Assembly: GCA_002269645.1 (NCBI GenBank)
Contig: NIVC01003940.1
Location: forward strand, 4,647 to 68,646
Source: Macrostomum lignano
Lineage: Eukaryota
Length of the DNA stretch: 64,000 nucleotides
Direction of reading: 5' to 3'
This document shows, in pieces, positions 1-20,445 of the stretch; position 1 is the first letter of the stretch; the number at the start of each line of letters is the position of its first letter. The position numbers were made by a program, and so were the translations under genes. Below the pieces are notes generated by a model. It made no database searches, was not told the origin of the DNA, and worked only from the letters and a program-made list of their open reading frames with translations.

Positions 1-1542
1 GAAGCCCTGTTTGGCGGCCGCACCGAGGCCTTTGTTCCGCACGCCGAGGCCACTGACACTGTGGAGCTGCGCTATAGGGATGTGGTAAGTTTTTTCAAAA
101 TTTCTCACACACACGCACACACACAGTTGACTTGCGTTTGAGTTTAGCCTACTCGACTAAGGTGTCGCTCTACCCGACTGTCAACAAGTTTGACAAGTAC
201 CCTGTCGGGCACCCGGTTCACCACCCCGAGCCTCATCTACTGGATGAGCAGCAGCTGGCTCGGTATTTTGGCATCGCCGAGGTGTCGATTCTGCCGCCAA
301 CCAATCTTCACATCCCGCTACTGCCCGCCAAGATTAGTAAGAAGCTTGTTTTTGGCCTCTGCCGCGTCTGCATGGAGACACAGTGCAGCAGCGAGTGTAC
401 ACACACTGACGCTGAGAGAATGCTACGCGGCACGTGGTCGACCCCAGAGCTCCACAAAGCCCTGCAGTTGGGTTACAAGCTGCAGTTAGTTCATGCCCTG
501 GCGTATTGGACCGAGACTCGGTCCGGGCTGTTTGCAGATTATGTAAACACCTTTTTGAAGCTCAACGCCGAGTCTAGCGGTTCGCCGGGGATGACTGAGG
601 GCGCCAAGGCTGCCTACATGGCCAGCTTTTTCGAGCGCGAAGGTGTCCGGCTTGACAAGGTGGAAGAGAACCCTGGTCTGCGCTTTGTGGCCAAGATTTT
701 TTTAAACTCGTAAGTTGGGGAGACCGTGTTTTTCTACTTACAGTAGCCAGATATACTAACTGCTAAAATTTATTTTTCCCTGCAGGCTCTGGGCAAATTC
801 TGCCAGCGCGACGACTTGACCTCCACAGAGATTGTGGACAGCTACGAGGCGTGGCTCCAGCGTCTGACAGACCCCTCCATCAAGTTCAAGTCGTGCGAGC
901 CTGTTGGGGAGAGCTTCATGATGCTCGAGTATAAGCCCCGATTTGGCGGTGCCAGCGAGCGAGCATTTAAGTACGCCAATGTACCAATTGGCGTTTTCAC
1001 CACCTCCCATGCCCCGCTGCGACTCTACGAGGCTCTGGAGGGGCTAGGACCAGAGTCATTTACGCCGATACCGATTCGTAAGTAATTTTTTCACTGTCTC
1101 TGTCTCTCTTTCTCCCCCAACACTTTTTTATCCTCCTCCTCCTCCCAGGGTCGTATACCGGTGCTCTCCGGGCGAGTACGAGCCTCCGGGCGGTTCGAGT
1201 TTGGGGCAGTGGACTGACGAGGTACCTGCCGGCTGCCGTATGGTACAGTTCACCACTGGGGGCCCCAAGCTCTACCGCTATGTGGTGGAGAAGCCCGACG
1301 GGTCGGTGTACTCGGTACTCAAGTGCAAGGGCATCCGAGTCACACCCGAGATTTCCGAGCGCGAGGACGAGCTGCAGGAAATTCTGCGCCACGGCTGCTC
1401 TGTACGCCTGCCCCAGGTCCAGTTCAGGCGCGATATGGCTAGCTGTACAATCAGGACCCTGGAGATGGACAAGACTTTCCAGCGAGTAATGACTAAGAGA
1501 GTGTATGGGGCCGCCAGCCGTCCGTATGGCTTTCGGGAGTGA
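1..1542 (+). CDS. Protein-primed family B DNA polymerase (DNA_pol_B_2, Polinton/Maverick/adintovirus type), 3' part. Exons <1-84, 162-709, 786-1077, 1149-1542; two 1-nt deletions (~791, ~1050) as given
   Basis: The spliced translation gives EALFGGRTE, YRDV|VSLYPTVNK..YPVGHP (motif A), LCRVC..C.H, NPGLRFVAKIFLNS|LWGKF (motif B), VIYADTDS|VVY (motif C), LGQWTDE, GGPKLY and KCKG. Introns 85-161, 710-785 and 1078-1148 are all GTAAGT...AG. Confidence 0.9.
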
Positions 1543-1643
1543 GTGATAACGATCTGTCTTAGGGGAGCGGTTTTCGTGAGTGATAAGGATCGGTCTTTGT
1601 ACGTCTCCCAGCCTGGGATTCCCCTATGTGCACACTTGGGATC

Positions 1644-1734
1644 CCTTCAAGTGTTAAAACTCCCATTTGACACCTCCAACCCCCTGTACATTGAGCGGGA
1701 TTCCTTCAAGTGTTAAAACTCCCATTTGACACCT
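1644..1734. repeat. Two exact 32-bp direct repeats (period 59)
   Basis: CCTTCAAGTGTTAAAACTCCCATTTGACACCT at 1644-1675 and 1703-1734. Confidence 0.9.
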
Positions 1735-2154
1735 ATTCCCCCGGGGCGGTTTGTAGCCCGTTGGTCCACCTCTTGGAGTAGAACTCCTGCAAAACGGACA
1801 TAAACTGCTGCGCCGATTAGCGTCCCGATAGCGCAATCGAAATACGTTTCCGCTCCCGAGCCCTCTCACGGGTTCAATCGGGCTGAAAGATTTTGACGCG
1901 TTCAAAAGCGTCGTGATAATAATATATTGTGGGTTAGGGCGGCTAAAACCTCCCTTTTGTTTTTTGTTTAATGCACCTGTGGGCTAGACAATTGCAGCAA
2001 TATTTACACCTGCAGCACCTACGTTTGTATAGCTTTATTAATCTGATATGTTTCAAAAGTGAATATTCTTTATACATATGAGTCTGTATTATACAACTAT
2101 ATATTTACGCCTGCTGATATTTGCACTCGCGCATGCATACCATTATTAATCCGA

Positions 2155-2250
2155 TATGTATCGAAAGTACACTTTGTAAACCTGCTTTATACATTAAACT
2201 GCTATGTATCGAAAGTAGACTTTGTAAACCTGCTTTATACATTAATCTGA
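2155..2250. repeat. 48-bp tandem duplication
   Basis: TATGTATCGAAAGTA(C/G)ACTTTGTAAACCTGCTTTATACATTAA.. at 2155 and 2203. Confidence 0.85.
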
Positions 2251-2529
2251 TATGTTCTTTACGCTTTATACACACATGTATTGAAAGTAAGTCTGCATTA
2301 TACTTGTATCTACCTGTGTTTTATTAGCGCCTACTACACTAATATTGATTTTGTCTGCTTTACCGTCTGTCAATATATCGATAATATGCACCTACATTGT
2401 GTGTTTTTTTGCTGCTCATATACCTATTATGCGCCATTATTCACGCCTACCAATATGTTTTATCTACTTTTTTATGTAAATATACTCAATTTCGCCTACT
2501 ATAAGTAGTTTTCACTAGCCTAATATCAT

Positions 2530-2790
2530 TGACTACATATCGGTGTACACATACATATCGGGAGAGTGTACTGGGGAGAGTGTACTGGGAAGAGTGTACT
2601 GGGGAGAGTGTACACTCGGGGTGCCTGCGGCATACATATCGGGGTACATATCGGGAGAGTGCGCATACATGTCGGGAGGGTCGCCTGCGGCTGGACGGCG
2701 CTTGGCGCCACGCGCCTGCGGCGCGCGCGCGCCGAGCGCCGATATCGATACGCGTATCGATCACCTAGTGATCGGGGCGCCAGCCAATGA
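2530..2790. repeat. GC-rich block: 14-bp GGG(G/A)AGAGTGTACT repeats, TACATATCGG repeats, (GC)6 and nested palindromes
   Basis: About 4 copies of the 14-mer at ~2560-2615; perfect 18-bp palindrome ATCGATACGCGTATCGAT at 2744-2761; GATCAC-CTA-GTGATC at 2759-2773. Confidence 0.85.
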
Positions 2791-3491
2791 GAGGCGAGGA
2801 GGGTTGACACCCACCTCACCTCCAAAATCAACGGAAACGGGGTTGTATAGTAGTGAGGTAGACCCAAAGTAGTGAGAGACCATATTTAAAATATTTCACT
2901 ATGTACCCAAGGCCGGGCAATTTGAGGCCGCGGAGGCAATAGAGCTTGTGCATGTGGGAGAAATAATTTCTCTACACGGAGCCAGCGTGCCTGAGGCCGC
3001 CTGCTGGGGGAGAGATTTTCTCTCTCGAAGTCAGCGTGCTCGGGGGTCGCGTGCATGGGAGAGAGAAGTAGCTATTATTATTATTCCATAATTATGAAAT
3101 CAGTGAGGTTTGAATACCAGATTTCATGTTTTCTAGTAGAAGTTAATCTCAGTTTTTCAGGGCATTTTTTTCTCGAATACTGTGTTGGGATAGCTATTTC
3201 AGCCATAAGAGCTTTGTACGTCAATCGATTTTAGTATATGTTGATCTAAGGGGGATTTGGTTGTCCCAGAAGCCCCATCATGACAACTACTATCCCGTTT
3301 AGATCAGTAGTTAAAATTATGACGATGAGGTAGTTGGTTTTTGGTATTAGGGCATGATGTTTAAATAGATTTTAGTACTCGTAGATAATGATTTTTTGTT
3401 GCACCAGAAAAGGGGTAGTGGTTTTTTTCCCGAAACTTTGCGGAGGGAATTTGCACCAGAACTCCCCTCATGACAACTTAGTGTCATAGTG

Positions 3492-3678
3492 GGTGTGTGT
3501 GTCTGAGTGAGTGAGTGAGTGAGTGTGTGTGTGTGTGTGTGTGTCAATCTTGTGTGTTTGCAAAGTGTCTGCCTGTCTATCTGTCTTTCTCTGTCTGTCT
3601 GTCTGTCTTTCTGTCTGTCTGTCTGTCTGTCTATCTGTCTTTCTGTCTGTCTGTCTGCCTGTCTATCTGTCTTTCTCT

Positions 3679-3712
<34 letters not shown>

Positions 3713-3777
3713 CTGTCTGTCTGTCCGTCTGTCTGTCCGTCTGTCTGTCTGTCTGTCTGGGTGTCTGTCTGTCTGGG

Positions 3778-3808
<31 letters not shown>

Positions 3809-3851
3809 GTGTCTGTCTGTCTGTGTGTCTGTCCGTCTGTCTGTCTGTCTG

Positions 3852-3900
<49 letters not shown>

Positions 3901-3901
3901 A

Positions 3902-3943
<42 letters not shown>

Positions 3944-3980
3944 GTCTGTCTGTCTGTCTGTCTGTCTGTCTGCCTGTCTT

Positions 3981-4012
<32 letters not shown>

Positions 4013-4030
4013 ACTGACTGTCTGTCTGAC

Positions 4031-4090
<60 letters not shown>

Positions 4091-4110
4091 CATCTATCTG
4101 TCTGTGTGTT
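3492..4110. repeat. (GT)n/(GAGT)n followed by a ~550-bp (CTGT)n microsatellite
   Basis: Read directly. Confidence 0.97.
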
Positions 4111-5580
4111 TAGTTAGCAAACGCACGCACTCGTTTCTCTTTTTTCCGGACGCGCGCCCAACGGCGGCCCGCCCGCTTTTTATCTCAATCGCCTTAATTG
4201 TGGCCTCAGTCGTCTCAAACGGACAGACATGGGTCGCCGTTGGTGGCGCCTCCGGCCTTGGGGCCGCCGTTGCTCCCGCTGCTTTTTTTCGCTCTGCTGT
4301 CATTTAGCTGCAAATGGTTACAGAAATTCTAGTGAGTGTTTTTATATAATACCCGTGATTTTTGGCCAACCGTGCTTTTGTAAACAGGGTTGTCTGTCTT
4401 CTGCACCACGTAGAGGTCATCACAACGCAGGAGTGGTGATCTGGATGTTTGCAAAGTGACCATAAATACCCCAGAAAATTATGCAAAAATGAACTGTTAA
4501 GTAGACAGAGTCACAGCAATGAACCAGATCTTCTGCCACAGCATTTTCTGCAAAGCGGCCAGTCTTGCAAGAGACTGTAGGATTTCTTTACTTAGCATAA
4601 AATCGGTGATTTTAAGTTTAAAAAAGACTCCAAAAAGTTTTTTGTCGGCTCCAAGGACTAATTAACAACTACTTAACTACTTAACTTACTTAACGTGTTA
4701 AGTAGTCCTTGATTGGCTCTTAATTCGAATCAATACACGCTTAAGTAGCAGTTGAGCGGCCGAATAAAGTGATACTCTGAGCATTCGGATTGGCTGTTGT
4801 CTCTAAAGCTGAATGAGACGTGCCTGTCAGATTACTGTTAGCACTTGCGCTGCTGGATGTTGCGTTAGTCAGTACAGCAGGAGCTCCCTGCGGCTGCGCT
4901 TCCACTGTTGCACTGCTTCCATCCAGTGACGGAGGAAAAAAAACGTGTCGATAAGCGCTGATTCCAGGTCCAAGCTCGATGTCGTCAGAAATGCTACTGT
5001 AGTTATCAATCTCATCAGATTTGTCTGCCGATATTTTCGTTTCAGCTCTCGTGGCAGGTGTAGCAGCGCTCGGTAATTGACAAATACCAACTCAGTATTT
5101 TCCAACTGTTCGGCCACCTGAACGCATTCTGCCCTGTTTAAATGATGGGGTGATTTAAAGTCGAGAGAATCTGCCGCATGCAAACCTGGTATTGTTTCGC
5201 TTGTCACTCTCCATTTGCTTCCAGGGAATGGGGCCTCTATTTCAAGCTCTCTTGAAAGCACTTCTGCCGCAGCTTCCATTCAGGTTTGAGCAGCGATTTT
5301 ATCTTCTTGATAATATTCCTCTCCTTTCTTGATTACTTTAGAAAGCTGTTTCACCGTTGCAGGTAATTCTCATCTCATCTGTTGGTATGGCTGGAGTGCT
5401 GGTGTCGTCTATTAATTTGTTTGCCCTGCTGAGCAGAGCCAGTCGTACATCGGTAAGACTGATCGACACAGGTGTGATCGACACCTGTACACTAGGATCG
5501 AGGAGCACCGCAAAAAGGCGAGAGCGATTCATGACCAGCTGCTAATGCGCTACGCGTGTGCCGACATCAAACATGATCAA

Positions 5581-5718: not shown

Positions 5719-6227
5719 CTATCCTACGGCTACTTAAACCTGGTTTTTAAACTCTTGGCCCGTACTTTCAAATTATTACAAAATATTGTCACCTGACCAT
5801 GCTGACAGTTACAGCGAAACATGTTGTGAATAAAATAAAATAAAATATTTTCGTCTTAATATTTGTCAACAATATCTATTGTTGTAAAGAATGCAAATGT
5901 TTACAATTATATTCTTGTTTTTGTGTATTTCTTAAGCGAAGCAGCATTCCTAAAATTTACTTTTAATAAAAGTTTACTCACTTGCAACGCTGTGCTCGCT
6001 CTTAAACTGTTGGACTGTCCTATCAACCGTATCTGAGGGGAAACAACAGGGAATTTTGCTGTTGTCAGTAAAAGAGTGAACGGTGTAATAAACAAAACTC
6101 AAATCAAATGACGCTCACTCAGATCAAATGTCACCTGACAGTGTTGCCCCGACTCTTGGCTCGCAACAATCGCATGGGCAATAAAAAATCGCAGCTACTT
6201 CGAAATAAAAAACATTGCTTTGAGCAT

Positions 6228-9112
6228 GATTCTTACCCCGAGAATCTCACAATTCTAACCCCCAGAACCTCGCCATTCATACCCCCCAGAATCTCACGAT
6301 TTTACACCCATAATCTCAAGATTCTTAACCCCAGAATCTCACGATTCTTACCCCCAGAATCTCACGATTCTTACCCCCAGAATCTCACGATTCTTACCCT
6401 AGAATCTTATGATTCTTACCCCCAGAATCTCACGATTCTTACCCTAGAATCTTATGATTCTTACCCCCAGAATCTCACGATTCTTACCCCCAGAATCTCA
6501 CGATTCTTACCCCCAGAATCTCATGATTCTTACCCCCAGAATCTCACGATTCTTACCCCCAGAATCTCACGATACTTACCCCGAAAATCTCACGATTCTT
6601 ACCCCCAGAATCTCACGATTCATACCCCCCAGAATCTCACGATTTTACACCCATAATCTCACGATTCTTAACCCCAGAATCTCGGGATTCTTACCTTCAG
6701 AATCTCGGCATTCTTACCCCCATAATCTCACGATTCTTACCCCAAGAATCTCACGATTCTTACCCCCAGAATCTCACGATTCTTACCCCAATAATCTCAC
6801 GATTCCTAGCTCCAGAACCTCATGATTCTTACCCCCTTGACTTACTTGACTTAGCTGCAGGGGGCGTCCGGCGGATGCAGCGAGGAGGTGGAGGAGACCG
6901 CCCATTCCGCTAGCCCCTGGCGACCAATGACTTCCATCGAAGCGATGTCGCTCAGGGGGACCCGTCGGTCTCGCCTGCAGCGCGGTCCTCCTCACCGGCG
7001 GTGGGGAAGAACTCAGCTCGTCCCGTGTCCTTGAGGTACCGGGCGAGCAGCGGGATGCTCTCAAGCCTGCAAACGTCGGAGAGAACCGGATTTGGCCCGA
7101 GGTGAGTGAGCCTGGCCCTGGTGAAAACCGGGCACTGGCAGATAAAGTGCTCGGCGTTTTCACTGCCTGAGCGGCAGTAGGTGCACCGCTCCTCGGGTAC
7201 TTGGCCCTGAAGGAAACAGTGGCGAGAGAAAGAGCCATGCCCGGAGAGGGCCGCGGGAGTTGATCACCGAGGCGGGGATGGGGGCTCCCGGGCCCGGCCC
7301 CAGCAGCGCGCCGGCGGAGCCAGCCTTGGCCAGCAGGTCAGCGCGCTCGTTGCCGAGGAAGCCGGCGTGGCCCGGGATCCATCTCAGCTCCACCTGGTTG
7401 CCTAGCGCAAGCCCGTTGAGCTTGGTGTTGCAGTCCAGGACGGACCTGGAGCTGGCGGTGCTGCGGCGGAGGGCCCGAAGGGCTGCTTGGCTGTCAGAGT
7501 GAAAAATAAATTTCCGACCGCTAAGCTGCCTTCGGCGCAGCTCTGCCGCGCAGGAGCTGATGGCAAGCACCTCGCTCTGAAAAACACTGCAGTTAAGCCC
7601 AGTGTGCTGGGAGTAGCTCCACACCACTTCTCCCTTGAAGAAGACGCAAGCTCTGAAGCCTGAAAGACCATGCCTCATAGAGCCGTCAGTGTAACTGTGG
7701 ACTTCAGAATCGCTCCAGCTGTCACTCACCTTTGGCTCAGGAGCAGGGTGGCTGGGATCGAGTCCGTGAGGATGTTGAGCCCGCCACACTCCTCGAGAGC
7801 CTTGAGGCAGAGGTCAGAGTGCGGGATAAGCAACCGCTTCTTAAAGGCCCGCACTTTCTTGAAGGCCACCCCAGCATCCAAAAGACGCCAATTCTTACCC
7901 CAAGAATCTCACGATTCTTACCCCCAGAATCTCACGATTCTTACCCCAGAATCTCACGATTTTACACCCATAATCTCAAGATTCTTAACCCCAGAATCTC
8001 ACGATTCTTACCCCATAATCTCACGATTATTTTTTCCAGAATCTCGAGATTCTTACCTTCAGAATCTCACAATTCTTACCCCCAGAATCTCACGATACTT
8101 ACCCCCAGAATCTCACGATTTTACCTTCATAATCTCACAATTCTTACCCCCAGAATCTCGGGATTCTTACCCCCATAATCTTACGATTCTTACCCCCAGA
8201 ACCTCACGATTCTTACCCCAGAATCTCACGATTCTTACCCCCAGAACCTCACCATTCTTACCCCCAGAATCTCACGATTCTTACCCCCAGAATCTCACGA
8301 TTCTTACCCCATAATCTCACGATTATTTTTTCCAGAATCTCGAGATTCTTACCTTCAGAATCTCACAATTCTTACCCCCAGAATCTCAAGATTCTTACCC
8401 CCAGAATCTCACGATTCTTACCCCCAGAATCCCACGATTTTACCTTCATAATCTCACAATTCTTACCCCCAGAATCTCACGATTCTTACCCCAGAATCTC
8501 ACGATTATTTTTCCCAGAATCCCGGGATTCTTACCTTCAGAATCTCACAATTCTTACCCCCAGAATCTCACGATACTTACCCCCAGAATCTCACGATTTT
8601 ACCTTCATAATCTCACAATTCTTACCCCCAGAATCTCGGGATTCTTACCCCCATAATCTTACGATTCTTACCCCCAGAACCTCACGATTCTTACCCCAGA
8701 ATCTCACGATTCTTACCCCCAGAACCTCACCATTCTTACCCCCAGAATCTCACGATTCTTACCCCCAGAATCTCACGATTCTTACCCCATAATCTCACGA
8801 TTATTTTTTCCAGAATCTCGAGATTCTTACCTTCAGAATCTCACAATTCTTACCCCCAGAATCTCAAGATTCTTACCCCCAGAATCTCACCATTCTTACC
8901 CCCAGAATCCCACGATTTTACCTTCATAATCTCACAATTCTTACCCCCAGAATCTCACGATTCTTACCCCAGAATCTCACGATTATTTTTCCCAGAATCC
9001 CGGGATTCTTACCTTCAGAATCTCACAATTCTTACCTTCAGAATCTCGGGATTCTTACCTTCAGAATCTCACCATTCTTACCCCCAGAATCTCAGGATTC
9101 TAAGGCCCAGAA
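6228..9112. repeat. 23-bp satellite (ATTCTTACCCCCAGAATCTCACG), in two arms 6228-6836 and 7891-9112
   Basis: Read directly; the second arm contains longer re-duplicated blocks. Confidence 0.95.
6837..7890 (-). mobile_element. 5'-truncated non-LTR retrotransposon (I/R1/Loa group) 3' end: RNase H plus CCHC finger, inserted in the satellite
   Basis: ORF 7160-7789 has YTDGS, FQSE, SDSQ, WIPGH and GNERAD (non-LTR RNase H). A shifted frame gives CTYCRSGSENAEHFICQCP. Minus-strand tail TAAGTCAAGTAAGTCAA at 6837-6853. Confidence 0.88.
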
Positions 9113-9329
9113 TAAAGAATCACTGCAAGATGCTGAATATGACAAACATAATCGCTCTGCTATTAAAAATCGATCAGCGATTAAAATTTGCAGGGGTGGC
9201 AACAGTGCACCTGATGAGGCTTGATGAACTTTGGCGGTTTAAAATGAGTCGGTTTTGAAGAATCGCCGCATAATCACAATAGACGATCATCTGGACGACA
9301 CTGCTAAATGGTTTGTAAAGCTGGACCCT

Positions 9330-12741: not shown

Positions 12742-13496
12742 TCATTTTGTACAGAAAGAACTGTCCACAAGAGATATTTCCACCTTCCCATCAGGTTCAG
12801 TGTTGCCTCCATCCGTTCCTGAGACTTGCTCAGCTGAAGCATCCGCGTAACTGGAGCCGCCGCCGCCTGGACTGCCTTTCGCCCCTCCGGAGCCGCCGCA
12901 GTAGCCGCCACCGCCACCACCTCCGGCTTCATTTGCTCCAGATCCAGCAGTTCGGCCTCCTCCGCCTCCACCGCCGTAGCCACCGGAACCGCCACCGGCA
13001 CCGTCGCCTCCAGCCCAGGTGGTGCCTCCAAAGCCACTACTATCTCCAGCAGGTGAAGCCGCAGGCGACTGCCATCCAGCACCAGCAGCGCCACAGTTAG
13101 TACCCGACGGGTTGCTACCGGCGTTCTGATTGGCCGATCCGGGGCAAGAGCCATGCGAATGAATTCCAGCTTTGCCTGCAGTTGTCTCAGTGCCTCCGCC
13201 TCCTCCCCCGGCCGCCAACAGCAGGGTGCTGCTGCTCGTGTAGATGAAAGTTCCGCCTCCTCCACCGCCGCCATCGCCACTGCTTCCGCGTTTTCCAACA
13301 ACAATGGTCAGCGTCTGAGAACTAGTCAAGGTAAAGTGAGCAATTTTTTCTGCTCCGTTGCCACCAGCGGCTGCTGTGCTTCCATCAAAAGCTGTACCGC
13401 CTTTGGCACCACGCGCTACAAATCGATAGCAGCCACCGTCCACAGGTGGCGTGTAGGTCACCGACGTTCCTAATTGGTATGACGCTGATGCTGGCG
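12742..13496 (-). CDS. Paralog 1 exon 2: ALK/LTK-type glycine-rich domain (terminal exon)
   Basis: Phase-1 acceptor TTTTCAG at 13497; YTPP..GCY.F.A.GAKGG, GGNGA, LTIVVG, GGGGGGTF, LLLAAGGGGGG; stop at 12742. Confidence 0.8.
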
Positions 13497-14059
13497 CTGA
13501 AAACGTTAGAGAAAATCAGATTTTAACTTATAATGTTATCATTTAATAAATACCAACTTGAATTGTTAAACAGGCAGGTGCTTGTTTAAATTAGGTCAGT
13601 TTCGTTTCTGTGTAAAAATATCAATTCCTAGAGCACAGAGAATAAGAATGGTTACAGAGAATACCGAAGTATTCTCACTAACTAGAATTACTACGCTTGG
13701 TTACTTTTCCGGATTTTTTGCTTACACCAATCTCAGAATGCGAATACATCTGGTGGGTTGGCCCCCTAATAAAACAACAAGAGAAACTGCAGCTGCAGCA
13801 GCAATAACATCAGCAGCCACTGCCACAGAACTGCACTCCGCCAAAGCCAATAAAGACAGTCCAGCTGATAAAAAGTCAATTAAGGACATAACTCCATTAA
13901 AAATCAGCGAAATTTTAGAAACCAATTTTCTGTGGCCAAAATACTTGCTTTAAGATTATCCACTTTATTGTCTTTTAGCCAGAGAGAATTATGCCTTTAA
14001 CAGCCTGGCTTGGACTGTAGTCTGCGGGAGAGTGGCAGCTTAGAATTCCGAGCTGTCCG

Positions 14060-14330: not shown

Positions 14331-14961
14331 AGTGAAGTTCTGTGGCGATCTCCTTCTGCTGTTGCGAATGGGGATTCCTATCTTGATTTGCTTAATTATG
14401 AACTTTACTGACAGAAGCAATTTACAGTTCAGTATGGCTTTTACCACTGAGCAATACGAGTATTAAGAAGCTTTTGTATCTAAATCCGAATGAAACTGAC
14501 TACCTAAACACGAGAGAGCATAGGAACTCGTGAAATTTAGTCTTGAAAATTTGATTAGAATCTGATGATAGCAAAAACTGCTTTTAAAAAGAGGCTTCGG
14601 GGCGAATGCATTCACAACTGAAGAAGTCGCAACAACTCGAGCTTCTTAGAATTGAGCTGATAAGAAAAATACATATTTGTCGGATTGCTAGTGCATTCAG
14701 TATGCTCTAAAAAAACGGCATTGTTAGTGCCGGATTTGTCTGTGTCGAAGCAATATTGAGCGCCATGCGTTCTCTCGAGCATGCTCAACGCGATACTACA
14801 AATATACATTACTTACGGGCCTCAAGCTTATTTCTAAGAAATTCGAGTTTAGGTTCCTACTACGAACGTACAGCAATCCAATTTGCAAATGGTGCAAAAG
14901 GAAGATTCTATTTTTCTTAGTATTTCACTTAAATGAAAAAAATGTATACATGTATACCTAC

Positions 14962-15832
14962 CAGTCAGTGCCAGTGGACCCGGAGTCGTATACGTTGTCG
15001 TTAGAGTCGTAGTAGTAGCAGTGGTAGTCGGAGTCGTAGTGGTCGTAGTCGTAGTGGTCGTTGGAGCCTCTGTGCTCGCAGTCGTAGTGGTAGTTGGAAC
15101 CTCTGTGGTCGTAGTCGTAGTGGTCGTTGGAGCCTCTGTGGTCACAATTGTAGTGGTCGTTGGAGCCTCTGTGGTCACAGTCGTAGTTGCCGTTGGAGCC
15201 TCTGTGGTCGTAGTCATAGTGGTCGTTGGAGCCTCTGTGGTCGTAGTTGTAGTGGTCGTTGGAGCCTCTGTGGTCGTAGTCGTAGTGGTCGTTGGAGCCT
15301 CTGTGGTCGCAGTCGTAGTGGTCGTTAGAGCCTCTGTGGTCGCAGTCGTAGTGGTCGTTGGAGCCTCTGTGGTCGCAGTCGTAGTGGTCGTTGGAGCCTC
15401 TGTGATCGTAGTCGTGGCTGTCGTTGGAGTCTCGGTGGTCGTTATCGGAGCCGAAGTAATCAGAGTCGAAGTGGTCGGAGCCGTAGTTCTCATCGAAGTA
15501 GTCTCACAATCTGCTCTGGTTCGCAGCACCTGCGTGTTGCAGGCCGGTCCGCTACTTTGCTGCCAGTAAAGCAGCAGGTCGCAGCTGTCTCCGAGAATGC
15601 ATGACCGGTTGCTAGGCAAGTACTCATAGACTGAGCACAGGGTCGTGTTGCTCGCGCATTCGACAGCGCACACTCGAGCATCGACAACCCCAAGCACTGT
15701 GCACTGACCGCTCGCTGCAGTCGCAGAATTGTAGCACAGGTCCGGCCTCTTGTCGAAGACAAAAGATAGGCCATCGGCGAATGAAATCAGGGCTGTCAAA
15801 GTTATGACAGCTTCGCCTACATGCAGTGACAT
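14962..15832 (-). CDS. Paralog 1 exon 1: signal peptide + PAN/apple-like domain + Thr-rich mucin stalk (11-aa units)
   Basis: Hydrophobic N-terminus; C..C.....C..YEY.....C pattern; ~12 TEAPTTTT units; phase-1 donor G|GTAGGT at 14961. Exons 1+2 = 1626 nt, i.e. 541 aa plus stop. Confidence 0.8.
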
Positions 15833-18800
15833 TCTAAGACGCTTACTCGTAGACTAGTAAAGGCTTCTTTTAGAAGGGTTCTAAAGCCAAGAATGTTGCT
15901 TGACAGAAAGTCAGAAACCGCAGCTCCTAAATACAATGCCTCAAGCAGTCTCGAGCAGTTTCCTTCTTCAATTCTTGTTGGCTGGCTCTCTAGAGTCCAG
16001 CGGGTAGAGTTTGTAGTCATCATCACCATGAAAACCAGCCCAAGACAGTAACTATCTCTGGGACAGAGAAAAACTCTTCCCACTGCCTGTTGTGTGGCAG
16101 TTCAGTATAAGTGGTGGCTTGAAGATGCTTCAAGTTGGTTTTGAGCAATAAGAAGGGTCTTTTTACTTTGTAAAGGAGAGCTTTTCTAACAAGTTTTGTT
16201 GTTGTTCAGTAGCTTTGGCATTTGTGGCAAGCTTAAATTAGCTCAGAGCTGTCGTCAAGAAGTGAATTCTACGTCCCATCTATATGCCTTTATGCTTTTC
16301 TCTGACTAGCTATAGGTCTCTCGACCCTATCTACAAGTGGCTACCGCAACTCCGTGCACCGCGGCACGGACCACTCGCCAAACGACATCTTATCCAACAG
16401 AGCCGTGAGCGACGAGGCTACCAAGGCACGTTTTGCCTTGCTTTAACTTGCGAGTAATTATTGTTTTGGCATAAGCACAACCGTTTATCAGACACAAATT
16501 TTCTCAATTTAACGTAGGATGCAAGTTGTTAGCTGCGTTTAGAATACCAAGTCACAAGGAGATTAGGAGCTACAATCAGTCTGGTTAGAAAGTCATTGTC
16601 ATTGTCACTACTTATTTTTCTACCTCTTCACAATTCCAATTGCAGAAGTAGTTTCTCTAGCAGAGAGCAGACTCCATCCTTGGTTCATTTGAGGCTTAAA
16701 TTATTTATGCCATCGCAGAGAGCCAGCGTCTCCCTTCCACAGCTAGAGGCTTTCAGCTTTCACTGTCGTCCTTAAGTGCCAGAAAAGCGACAGAGATTTC
16801 CACGTACATGTATTTTCTTTAGAAAACGTTTTTTTTACCGGAGTGGGCTAAAACGGCGCATATTCAACTCACATGACGTTTAAAAGATGAAAAAATTAAG
16901 TCTTCTTGTATCTTTAGTGAGGTGAAAAAATTACTCATGTTCATCTTTGGTTATCCTATTAAGCTTGTCTAAATTACCTATAAGGTACTGCATGGATAAG
17001 TAAGTTTGAAAAAATGCTGCATGATTTTGAACTTTACTAGTGGTCGATTTTTATTGCTACATTCGTGTATAGTAACGATATTGGTAAATGCAAGTTTTTG
17101 TAATAAGGAAACGATTTTGAAACCTGACTTAAGATCATTTATTTCGGTCCCTGAGTGGTTTAACAAGATTTATCTATTTTAATTTATACAGAAAGCTGGG
17201 AAAAATGTAAAATTACAACTCTACCCTACTCTTCCGTGAATTTTTGTCATCCATTGAGCTTGTCTATGGTAAAACCTCATCTGGTCCAAAATGGTCTACA
17301 AAAACGAAAAAATCTGTTGAGAAACCAGTTGAAGGAAAATGCATAATTTCATTCAATATTTGTAAGAGAGATGTGTCCCACAACCAGCGCTGAAGCGATT
17401 ATGCCTATTCAGCTGACTCCAAAGAACATAGCAAATGCACCAGTACTGTACGCAAGCACGCACTCATACACACGCTCACACAGGATGTACAGCAGCCCTG
17501 ACTTTCTAATCGTCAGACATGTACACTCTCTGTGCTCTCTTTTGGCCCTCGTGGCTGCGAATCACACGGCAACCCACGCCAAATTTTCGTGCACACAATC
17601 CTCAATTCAAGTATTCGAAAACTGGTGTAGAGATCTCCAAACCTAGTAGACTACTAGAAGTAGTAAGATAAAATTACATGTACGAATGCAAATTTAAAAA
17701 AGCATGCGTCATACTCTATTTTCAGTAATACCAGTAATATCACGAAAACAGTGAGTGATCATTCCACAGTTCGAAAAATCGGTTTTCAACCTATATTTCC
17801 AAATATGGTAAATGTTAACTCAAATGCGACCCAAGTTTCACCCTTTTTTATTAGAAACCGCACCGATCAAAGGAGAAAGTTCATTTCTTGATTCTTATCA
17901 ATAAAACCGGTTTAGGGCTCAAGGTCAAATAAAATTGTGTATAAATGAATACAAGCGAAAAATCCGAGCTGAAACCTCAGACTCGGAGCAGTCAGTCTTT
18001 AATTGTTAGTTGATTATTGAGAGCTGTGTTATTGCCGGCAGTTACTGATCAGTTGATTTAACTGAGTTTATTGAATTTGAGGCCTCCCCTTTTCCTAAGG
18101 AATTGGATAGGATCTGCGGACCGATTCTGATACTCTTAGTCCATTGATTGATTTTGGTACCCTAGAGTAACCGAAGGAGCATACGACTCCGATTCCTTTA
18201 TTTCTAGTAGAAGACGCCCTTTCTGGAGGACCTCGTTATCGTCATAGAGTTGACTTTGTTATTAGGGCGCATCTCTGCACTTGAGGAATGTATTGACGTC
18301 GACGGATTAAATTGAAGTGCTCTCATATTCGGCCGATTTTAAAACTCAAGAAGACTACTCCGGAGGAGGAAGATTTGAAGAAACGAGCTCGGAGAACCTG
18401 CCCAACAAAGAAGCGGAGCCCGCACCACTGATCACTAAATTTCGTTCCCAGGCTTGATGTCTGGAAGTGGAAGTTCGTGCGTTTGGATACTAGACTTAAT
18501 TCTCCCTCTCTCTTCTCTTTCTCTCTCTCTTTCCATCTCTCTCTCTAGTGTGCTAAAACGAACTCTTCACAAGGTTACAGTCAGCATCTGATCAAACGCA
18601 TACCAACTTAATGCGCATATAGGACTGATATAAACTGGTCTAGCATCTAAATTTTTCAGGACTAAAATGTCAATAGAATTCCTTCATCCAGTACAGAATA
18701 AAAGTACTTTTTAAATTCTGTATTTGATTATATGCGGTCTGGAAAACAGTTTAGGCACTGTATAATTAAAGTAAGTTGCATGTATATCCCACGGGTTCAT

Positions 18801-19104: not shown

Positions 19105-20445
19105 ACTTCTTTGAGACGGACTCTTTGAGACATCCTCCGGGGTGCTTGATTGAGATACGCTAGCGCCGTTCCTGTTCGTTCTGGTGCTTGACTGGGTGCT
19201 GCGGACCGCTCCTCCTACCAACGACGATGGTTTTCTGTTGCGGCGACGCGTGTCGACGCCAACCGGAGAGACGGCTCAGTGTGCTTGGCTACGCCGACGA
19301 TCTTGCCCTGCTGTCCTCGATCGTCGAGGGCGCCCAGCGCCAGCTGGACCGGCTGGTGAGCGTTGCGGCGAGTGTCGGCCTGGTGGTCGACACGCAGAAG
19401 ACCGTTTTGCTCTGCGTGCCGGACGACATTCGAGACTTCTATTTTCTGCCGAGGTGCTGACGGGCAGGTGACGAGGCTTCCGCGCTATCAGCAGTTTGTC
19501 TACCCCGGCAGTCCGGTGCCTCACGTTCGCGAGAACCGGCGACGTCTCCGTGGACTTGCCTGGGCTGCTTTCGTTCCGTGAGGATTGTCCTGCAGCCCGT
19601 GGCCCTGCCTCACAGCCAGAGGACGGCGTTGTTCCAGGCGGTGTTCGAGACCGTCCTGTGGTACAATGCCGAGACCTGGACGCTGACGAGTTTGCTCGAA
19701 CAGCAGGTCGATGCAGCGCACGCTGGCCTGCTGCGCGCCGCTTTCAAAGATCGGCTACGAGCATCAATGCGTCAATGCGGCACTCTATCGCCGCACCTCA
19801 AATTTGTTGCGCCGTCGGCGACTTCAGCAGGCCAGCTAGGTCATATTATCCGAGCCGAATCGTACTGCCCGCAACCGGTGCAGGAGCTGGAGGTGCTCTC
19901 TCTCTCTCTCTCTGCACCGCACACCCCGAAATCAGCGCTGCTGCGAGGGGCGGGGGCGTCAAAATTGGCGCCCCAGTCTGCGAAGGAGCCTGAGAACTGC
20001 CTGCGCGTCACAGAGGAGAAGCTCACGATCGGCCGGGCGGGCCGCGTGTACTCTGGGGCAGTCGAAAAGAAGATGCTGCTCGGTGTCCGGGTCCCCGCAG
20101 TCCAGGCACAGCGCGCGGGTTGACAGACAGGCCGAGCCGATGGCGAGTGGCGGCCGCTTGGAGGCTGCAGCCGGCGCAAAGCGAATTAATGGCCACCTCG
20201 GCCCTTCTGAGTAAAGCTGGCAGTTGTGGCCAGGAGGTTTCCCGGCCCCAGAACTCGAGGTCGAGGTTGGATCTCAGATGGTGGAGGATGGAGGTGCTGC
20301 TGCTGACGCTGCAGGCACCCTACCAGCGGGCCGGGCAGGCGCGTACTCGGCGTTTCGTCGACTGCCTGCTGGCTGATGCCGGCGCCCCGGACACTGCCGG
20401 CAGTGCGGCCTAAGTTCGCGCCCAGGCCCTGAAACCCGCATAGCA
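19105..20445 (+). mobile_element. 5'-truncated, frameshifted RTE-like non-LTR retrotransposon (reverse transcriptase)
   Basis: SGVLD*DTLAPFLFVLVLDW (GVxQGDxLAP), LGYADDLALL, VLWYNAETWTL and LGHIIRAE, spread over several frames. Confidence 0.88.

Follow-up and report, generated by a model that had tools for sequence, protein, structure and literature searches.

A probable splicing-dependent Polinton derivative of Macrostomum lignano with introns in the catalytic motifs of its DNA polymerase gene

The ends of Polintons are defined as 5′-AG..CT-3′, and protein priming is established for their DNA polymerase, pPolB. Polinton surveys regard the core genes as free of introns and take insertions that are called introns as a sign of decay (PMC8097293; here and below, citations refer to passages of the papers and not to their whole text). 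In this work, we analyze a stretch of 64,000 nucleotides of Macrostomum lignano DNA (contig NIVC01003940.1, positions 4,647 to 68,646 of the forward strand), called the window, which begins within a pPolB gene whose three catalytic motifs are each split by a short spliceosomal intron. The gene very probably belongs to a mobile, splicing-dependent Polinton derivative. We further favor, with a probability of roughly 0.55, a reading in which the introns have been retained where only their exact removal is tolerated, and in which the element is integrated by a helper.

A full-text literature search, with subscription papers, supplements and Repbase outside its range, turned up neither this element nor spliceosomal introns in the motifs of a pPolB, and what it gave on Macrostomum together with Polintons was one unrelated paper. 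Public automatic gene models already join some of these exons, without comment.

The polymerase gene and the splicing of its introns

The homologs of the gene are Polinton-type pPolB proteins, and PF03175 is detected above its cut-off in two exons. The gene and the adjoining end of the element are arranged as follows in the window.

1..84, plus strand: the large pPolB exon, of which this is the 3′ end; it holds the GGRT motif and the first half of motif A (..YRDV) and extends upstream in the contig.
85..161, plus strand: motif A intron, phase 0, 77 nt, GTAAGT..AAG; found by the aligner and skipped in RNA-type contigs.
162..709, plus strand: 548-nt pPolB exon running between VSLYP of motif A and KIFLN of motif B; PF03175 at E 2.6e-12.
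710..785, plus strand: motif B intron, phase 2 in a Ser codon, 76 nt; found by the aligner and skipped in RNA-type contigs.
786..1077, plus strand: pPolB exon from motif B to YADTD (motif C), frame-broken in the window copy; aligner and locus comparison.
1078..1148, plus strand: motif C intron, phase 2 in a Ser codon, 71 nt; found by the aligner and skipped in RNA-type contigs.
1149..1542, plus strand: last pPolB exon (GPKLY, KCKG, KRVY..PYG) with the stop codon; sequence and locus comparison.
1543..2144, no strand: subterminal part of the element with the 3′ untranslated region; similar to other copies as far as about 1850-1890, and RNA-type contigs extend past the stop.
2145..2854, no strand: right terminal inverted repeat (TIR) with an approximate start and its end, ..AGTAGT, at 2854; aligns with either end of complete copies and holds a conserved 28-mer.
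2855..2860, no strand: candidate target-site duplication GAGGTA; the left end lies outside the window contig and seems truncated in the matching contig C3314.

The original prediction, made from the sequence alone, gave the three introns as GTAAGT..AG intervals with exactly these boundaries. Their placement in the motifs was found again independently. A purpose-written spliced aligner, used with an 824-column pPolB profile built from 43 database proteins, returned the same introns at columns 414 (phase 0), 597 (phase 2) and 693 (phase 2), the motifs lying approximately at columns 412-418 (A), 596-601 (B) and 688-693 (C). The aligner made one false call in a coding insert near column 30 and its calls need checking; calls around columns 485-488, and those that fell in degraded loci or where an alignment ends, were dismissed by eye as coding inserts or noise. 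Within window positions 1-1600, GTAAGT occurs three times only, each time at an intron donor. The introns have a GC content of 38-44%, against 56-64% in the exons. Among the U2 features, GT..AG ends, a GTRAGT donor and a pyrimidine-rich 3′ end are present in the motif introns, and branch-point words resembling CTAAC or CTAAT were seen by eye in only some introns. The three window introns lack mutual similarity, as had been noticed (z 0.3-0.7 against shuffles). The prediction also held that no intron interrupts the stretches between the motifs, which stands, but an exclusive placement in motifs does not extend to the whole gene: it has six introns, three of which lie in motifs. The other three are located 5′ of the window (contig positions 1180-2016, 2062-2128 and 2643-2823) in the poorly conserved N-terminal part, at places that match by eye between the two families described below.

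Evidence for splicing comes from contigs, not raw reads, of sequencing runs. Of the 24 runs listed, none is on record as RNA and 14 were labelled RNA by guess. On a copy of family A, the family of the window gene, each motif intron is skipped at GT..AG in contigs of all four RNA-guess runs, from four studies; the upstream introns of the same copy are skipped in one, two and four of these runs, respectively. With the window's own contig, two further RNA-guess runs skip the motif B and motif C introns. A single RNA-type contig of 2026 nt (X10, record 5) bridges all three motif introns. The junctions thus appear as GT..AG joints in six of six RNA-guess runs and in neither of two unlabelled runs (the motif A joint of X14 is not among the rows shown). 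The contigs of the two unlabelled runs read through the introns, as expected of DNA. Other copies are the source of these transcripts, because the spliced contigs diverge by several percent from the copy in the window.

The window copy itself is a decayed member of family A and cannot be read through. Its exon at 786-1077 has frame breaks near 790 and near 1048 and measures 292 nt, against 294 nt in 22 of 30 loci; upstream of the window, the gene carries more frame breaks and a stop. Contig C3314 matches window positions 1-3200 with no mismatch and one gap. It lacks the break near 790, which is therefore probably an assembly error, and shares the break near 1048 and the upstream stop. In C3314 (L041-L042), a nested insertion of about 10 kb with retroelement-like open reading frames (ORFs) lies inside the element.

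Copies, ends and gene content of the element

A pPolB exon compared with its own genome gave 123 matches. The first two introns occur at the same place in 30 of the 30 best loci, and the third in 29 by pattern, the last one being resolved later. With seven more loci, the remaining matches lying outside the count, the three motif sites are present throughout family A (37 of 37). Exon 2 measures 548 nt in each of the 30 loci, and the introns vary in length (65-121, 67-83 and 67-74 nt). Variant codons in exon 2 are synonymous in 56 cases and non-synonymous in 13; pPolB of family A is under purifying selection. Among 17 family-A loci given to the aligner, seven have no break in the core, and the stop is found in the window copy alone. 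L217 and L218 apparently represent one insertion in two contigs, with reverse-complement duplications, and show zero and four core frameshifts; many of the frame breaks are therefore likely to be assembly errors. The sister family B, whose pPolB is 68.5% identical to that of family A over 785 columns, shares the three sites in all of its 11 loci (the third acceptor being unresolved in one). Other copies with the same intron positions thus exist in this genome, as a check proposed with the prediction had asked. UniRef records labelled Macrostomum lignano are 71-89% identical to family B.

Complete pPolB copies of family A measure 8.8-10.1 kb and have TIRs of about 650-950 bp with arms 93-100% identical. 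Family A ends in ACTACT..AGTAGT and family B in ACTACG..CGTAGT. A 6-bp duplication, different in sequence at each site, flanks 11 of 11 family-A-type elements with both ends read. Ten of these carry pPolB (two are probably one insertion) and one is a palindromic derivative; both ends were located in 8 of the 16 stretches of a larger end-reading set, and the other three elements were read separately. Family B elements measure 9.5-9.7 kb (13.8 kb with a nested insertion), have TIRs of 230-325 bp and show 6-bp duplications in three of the four loci where TIRs were found. The conserved 28-mer of the family-A TIR, also present in the right TIR of the window, occurs 87 times in the genome. A splicing-dependent lineage of virus-like elements, one of the possibilities originally raised, is supported by the spliced contigs and by the many dispersed copies bearing TIRs and target duplications. 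These same copies argue that the family is mobile and not, as was alternatively proposed, a domesticated polymerase.

Derivatives without a polymerase were also observed. L212, L219 and L226 (G000 C303, C93 and C2944) are whole-element palindromes of 8.7-9.4 kb with the family-A TIR and no recognisable ORF, one of them with a 6-bp duplication, and about ten more similarly spaced TIR pairs in the genome have no pPolB match. The palindromes are possibly foldback or defective replicons of the same polymerase. Non-coding derivatives of 4-5.7 kb with the same ends (L079, L080, L081 and L227) include one, L081, with arms of 2.76 kb.

Beside pPolB, family A carries a PC4-like ORF and one further gene without assignment. 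The PC4-like ORF is 33% identical over 81 aa to that of a full Polinton of the same genome (E 1e-8, pairwise), and the ESM Atlas gave a PC4 lead below 0.9. The ESM Atlas returned no match for the 360-aa ORF, and no relative was found in the PDB by sequence. Behind the PC4-like ORF lies a gene (L059:1379-2458 minus; L031:3-374 minus) that differs between subfamilies and has no family match; one version has a spliced minus-strand intron, with the joint 1452-1544 in three of four runs. The polymerase contains, by eye, an FHGCFHHGC stretch without a Pfam match, and two homologs are named very short patch repair protein.

Recovery of the rest of the element, which the prediction had called for, succeeded in family copies for the TIRs and the 6-bp duplication; integrase, ATPase and capsid genes were not found. 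None of 71 ORFs (41 from a family-A copy, 16 from a palindrome and 14 from a family-B copy) matched an rve integrase or a capsid family. A tblastn search with 50 ORFs of five full elements against the element recovered only pPolB and a weak PC4, a search which a heavily spliced gene could escape. These tests are good for rve; Pfam detects the integrase of the presumed helper at 8.6e-14. For major and minor capsid proteins, ATPase and protease, no ORF of fitting size or match was seen with tools that are weak for such genes.

Elsewhere, the genome contains 122 integrase matches and further pPolB families whose frames stay open over 1125-1478 codons. It also has full Polintons that are intronless and carry intact integrases. 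The six integrase-bearing elements with ends read (C114, C291, C494, C110, C592 and C10) all have AGTAGT..ACTACT. The full Polintons also carry a TBP-like gene (L197:5720-6358, E 7e-19). Several candidates were rejected. A bipartite partner segment with integrase or capsid was not recovered: among the TIR pairs without pPolB that were read, three of three long ones are the palindromes of 8.7-9.4 kb, and three short ones of 4-5.7 kb have no recognisable genes. A polymerase-less helper was discarded because the C110/C291 group encodes pPolB. C234, considered as an intronless sister or retrocopy, is 37% identical and groups elsewhere in the tree.

Age of the introns and reasons for their position

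The intron sequences of families A and B fail to align (z up to 1.8), which indicates that the gains are old. Two database ORFs, P0107 and P0108, known from protein only, are 59-68% identical to A and B; they start at (V)SLYP and stop at KIFLNS, the exact bounds of exon 2, and join the A+B clade with a support of 0.999 in a tree of 119 rows. P0111, from another lineage, stops at KMLLNR, which may reflect an independent motif B intron or a mere lesion. In L032 and L034, the family B motif A intron begins GTGAGTAGTGATACTACT, a small palindrome of Polinton end hexamers that may be due to chance. A supposed intronless sister family with open frames of 867 aa was rejected, as its motif A intron is free of stops and a multiple of three in length.

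A metagenome scan gave at least 510 stretches, and 450 of those listed are relatives; the best 80 were kept and, with five viral loci, form a set of 85. Credible pPolB introns were found in two of these distant relatives, L139 (columns 195, 316, 416, 517 and 665) and L132 (columns 69 and 588), a lower bound because the survey favors uninterrupted genes. In a FastTree phylogeny (131 rows, 804 columns, midpoint root, loci with fewer than 480 aligned columns dropped), A and B form a long-stemmed clade with a support of 1.0. L139 and L132 lie far from this clade and have different exact sites, among them Exo II, Exo III and a second position within motif A; their introns were therefore gained independently. 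The nearest pPolB from outside the host is about 37-40% identical. The metagenome Polinton L139:1-7144 has, besides its five predicted pPolB introns, a TBP gene (PF00352, E 7e-34) and ORFs that by eye resemble capsid and protease genes. Another lineage is represented by L075:5140-7440, an AT-rich and degraded pPolB without introns whose genome is richer in GC. Scanning for the same junctions by pattern led to eight viral and three prokaryotic-bin loci, none of which is a pPolB.

Ranked by local conservation against 112 intronless rows, the motif sites reach the 98th, 97th and 92nd percentile (p 6e-4 at seven columns; 6e-4 to 1.4e-3 over three widths). The seven sites of L139 and L132 are likewise enriched in conserved positions (p 0.010, range 0.003-0.02), and the probability of at least three of six introns falling in 60 motif codons of 1230 is 0.002. 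A survey of intron positions on the tree, as had been suggested, thus finds a bias towards conserved sites, but other lineages use other exact positions. For comparison, the motif A intron lies 3 nt upstream of what we take to be the pol-a intein site and the motif B intron 2 nt downstream of the presumed pol-b site. The motif C intron lies 8 nt downstream of the intein site between YGD and TDS (PMC549080).

In the reading that we favor, the introns would have been gained once, long ago, in the stem of the A+B clade, since the relatives are intronless and the introns of one family can no longer be aligned with those of the other. The pPolB mRNA would be produced by the host's RNA polymerase II and spliceosome, which would tie replication to the host nucleus. 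The polymerase would start at the ACTACT ends by protein priming, and the rve integrase of a helper would carry out integration. As neither integrase nor capsid genes were found in the element, both are likely borrowed from full-size Polinton relatives. The motif bias would arise from retention because inexact intron loss within a motif would be lethal; a graded bias without fixed sites is what retention predicts.

Several points weigh against this reading. The RNA label of the runs is a guess and the support consists of contigs. The bias tests are post hoc, having been defined after the data were seen, and the window was selected for such features. The L139 and L132 introns have no RNA support, and conserved sequence makes it easier to detect them. 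The three upstream introns were kept in both families although their sequence context is poorly conserved, for which retention by itself does not account, and no intron loss event was observed that would point to differential loss. A Pox_A32 search gave no match genome-wide although ATPases are present, so the absence of capsid and ATPase genes is weakly grounded, and tblastn reached the PC4 homolog only at E 0.002. Lastly, no integrase-bearing element with ends read has ACTACT ends, i.e., no helper is matched.

Among the other explanations, we consider it improbable that the introns are kept because they split the sole stretches that are conserved among competing Polinton families, so that neither a site-specific nuclease nor small RNAs of other families, acting on nascent transcripts, would recognise them. 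The element would then be, at the same low level of confidence, a polymerase-only Polinton satellite with its own ends, whose introns resemble homing parasites and shield the motif DNA from the nucleases or small RNAs of rivals. All three sites do lie in the most conserved stretches, and the genome houses several Polinton families, some with an Endonuclease_7 domain in pPolB. In addition, pPolB nuclease domains (VSR, HNH or EndoVII-like) appear functional (10.1101/2023.08.22.554363) and collaborative homing is described for self-splicing introns (PMC11296320). However, the three sites share no clear DNA motif, and 83 of the 85 relatives are intronless, most of them with the same HGC-type domain. 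A little less credible is an origin in which the three motifs formerly housed inteins or group I introns, with spliceosomal introns left behind or seeded by them. The position of the introns within 2-8 nt of the three intein sites speaks for it. Against it, all three miss the exact intein sites, the three motifs showed no insert the size of an intein in 43 proteins, the introns of 65-121 nt contain no shared remnant, and Exo II, Exo III and other points carry introns in other lineages.

Ordinary host-type gain at random sites, noticed because it is striking, is doubtful to a slightly greater degree. It would suit a single ancestral set of gains with three of six introns outside motifs, in a window selected from about 250,000, but the placement probability of 0.002 and the bias of the independent sites (p 0.003-0.02) run counter to it. 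There is a still smaller chance that intron retention acts as a switch, giving a dead polymerase so that the type or state of the host cell licenses replication. The family B motif A intron, mostly 81 nt and stop-free, would add 27 residues in motif A if retained, and introns mark punuivirus latency genes (10.64898/2026.10.09.758095). Most of the introns, though, contain stops or are not a multiple of three, so that retaining them would inactivate the polymerase wherever they lay, and contigs give no retention rates. Domestication as a host gene would account for six host-like introns, expression and purifying selection, and is nonetheless very remote: for the family it is already refuted by the target duplications, and the dozens of dispersed copies with TIRs, a different 6-bp duplication per site and non-coding derivatives with the same ends oppose it as well; one fixed copy lacking TIRs might still exist.

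The rest of the window contains a TCTG microsatellite (3347-4117), a long tandem repeat (6072-9258) and two retrotransposon fragments recognised by eye, one RNase H-like (7160-7813, minus strand) and one reverse-transcriptase-like with YADD (19154-20123). Two ORFs on the minus strand encode a glycine-rich product of 257 aa (12742-13515) and a 334-aa product with a signal-like start, a Cys-rich domain and a Thr-rich repeat tail (14849-15853).

Significance and comparison with known systems

Because surveys score introns as decay, intron-bearing lineages may be overlooked: recently mobile ones may be thrown out as fossils or missed by ORF screens. A single gene in which repeated independent gains prefer conserved sites makes intron gain versus retention testable. 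The element inverts the usual non-autonomous pattern, with the replicase kept, the integrase not found, and a swarm of non-coding and palindromic derivatives. Its host, a laboratory flatworm to judge from UniRef labels, allows splicing, small RNAs and helper dependence to be examined. Should the satellite with shielding introns prove true, spliceosomal introns would gain a selfish, site-biased life cycle inside animal viruses.

The element works like a Polinton and descends from one, and it departs from the group in its integrase, capsid module, end sequence and intron-containing genes. As in Polintons or Mavericks (adintoviruses), there are a pPolB (PF03175), long TIRs, a 6-bp target duplication and a PC4-like gene. 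Unlike them, it has six introns, intact vertebrate and nematode elements being described as intronless (PMC8097293; 10.1101/2022.07.12.499685). It measures 9-10 kb, against 12.9-16.8 kb in the full Polintons of this genome where measured, lacks a detected integrase, capsid and ATPase, and has ends (ACTACT..AGTAGT) that are the reverse of theirs. Capsid-less Polintons (PMC4028283) likewise have no morphogenesis genes, the losses there being the major capsid protein, protease and ATPase; here the integrase is not found either, and yet the copies have target duplications.

Spliceosomal introns inside Polinton-like elements are also known from introner-bearing viruses of dinoflagellates (10.1101/2025.03.18.643946). 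Those introners are recent repeated copies, mostly inserted after integration, whereas the present introns are old, mutually unrelated (z up to 1.3 when the three are compared among themselves) and were fixed as the clade spread. The intron of the chlorovirus PBCV-1 DNA polymerase (PMC7019647) and those of punuivirus latency genes (10.64898/2026.10.09.758095) similarly make viral genes dependent on the host spliceosome; these are giant viruses, and the passages on them report no motif bias. PolB inteins, with three allelic sites, and group I introns at conserved sites (PMC549080, PMC2814812) are intervening sequences in active-site motifs as well, and spliceosomal introns showed no preference for conserved sites (PMC2814812). 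In contrast to these inteins and group I introns, the introns described here are spliceosomal, carry no homing endonuclease and are offset by 2-8 nt.
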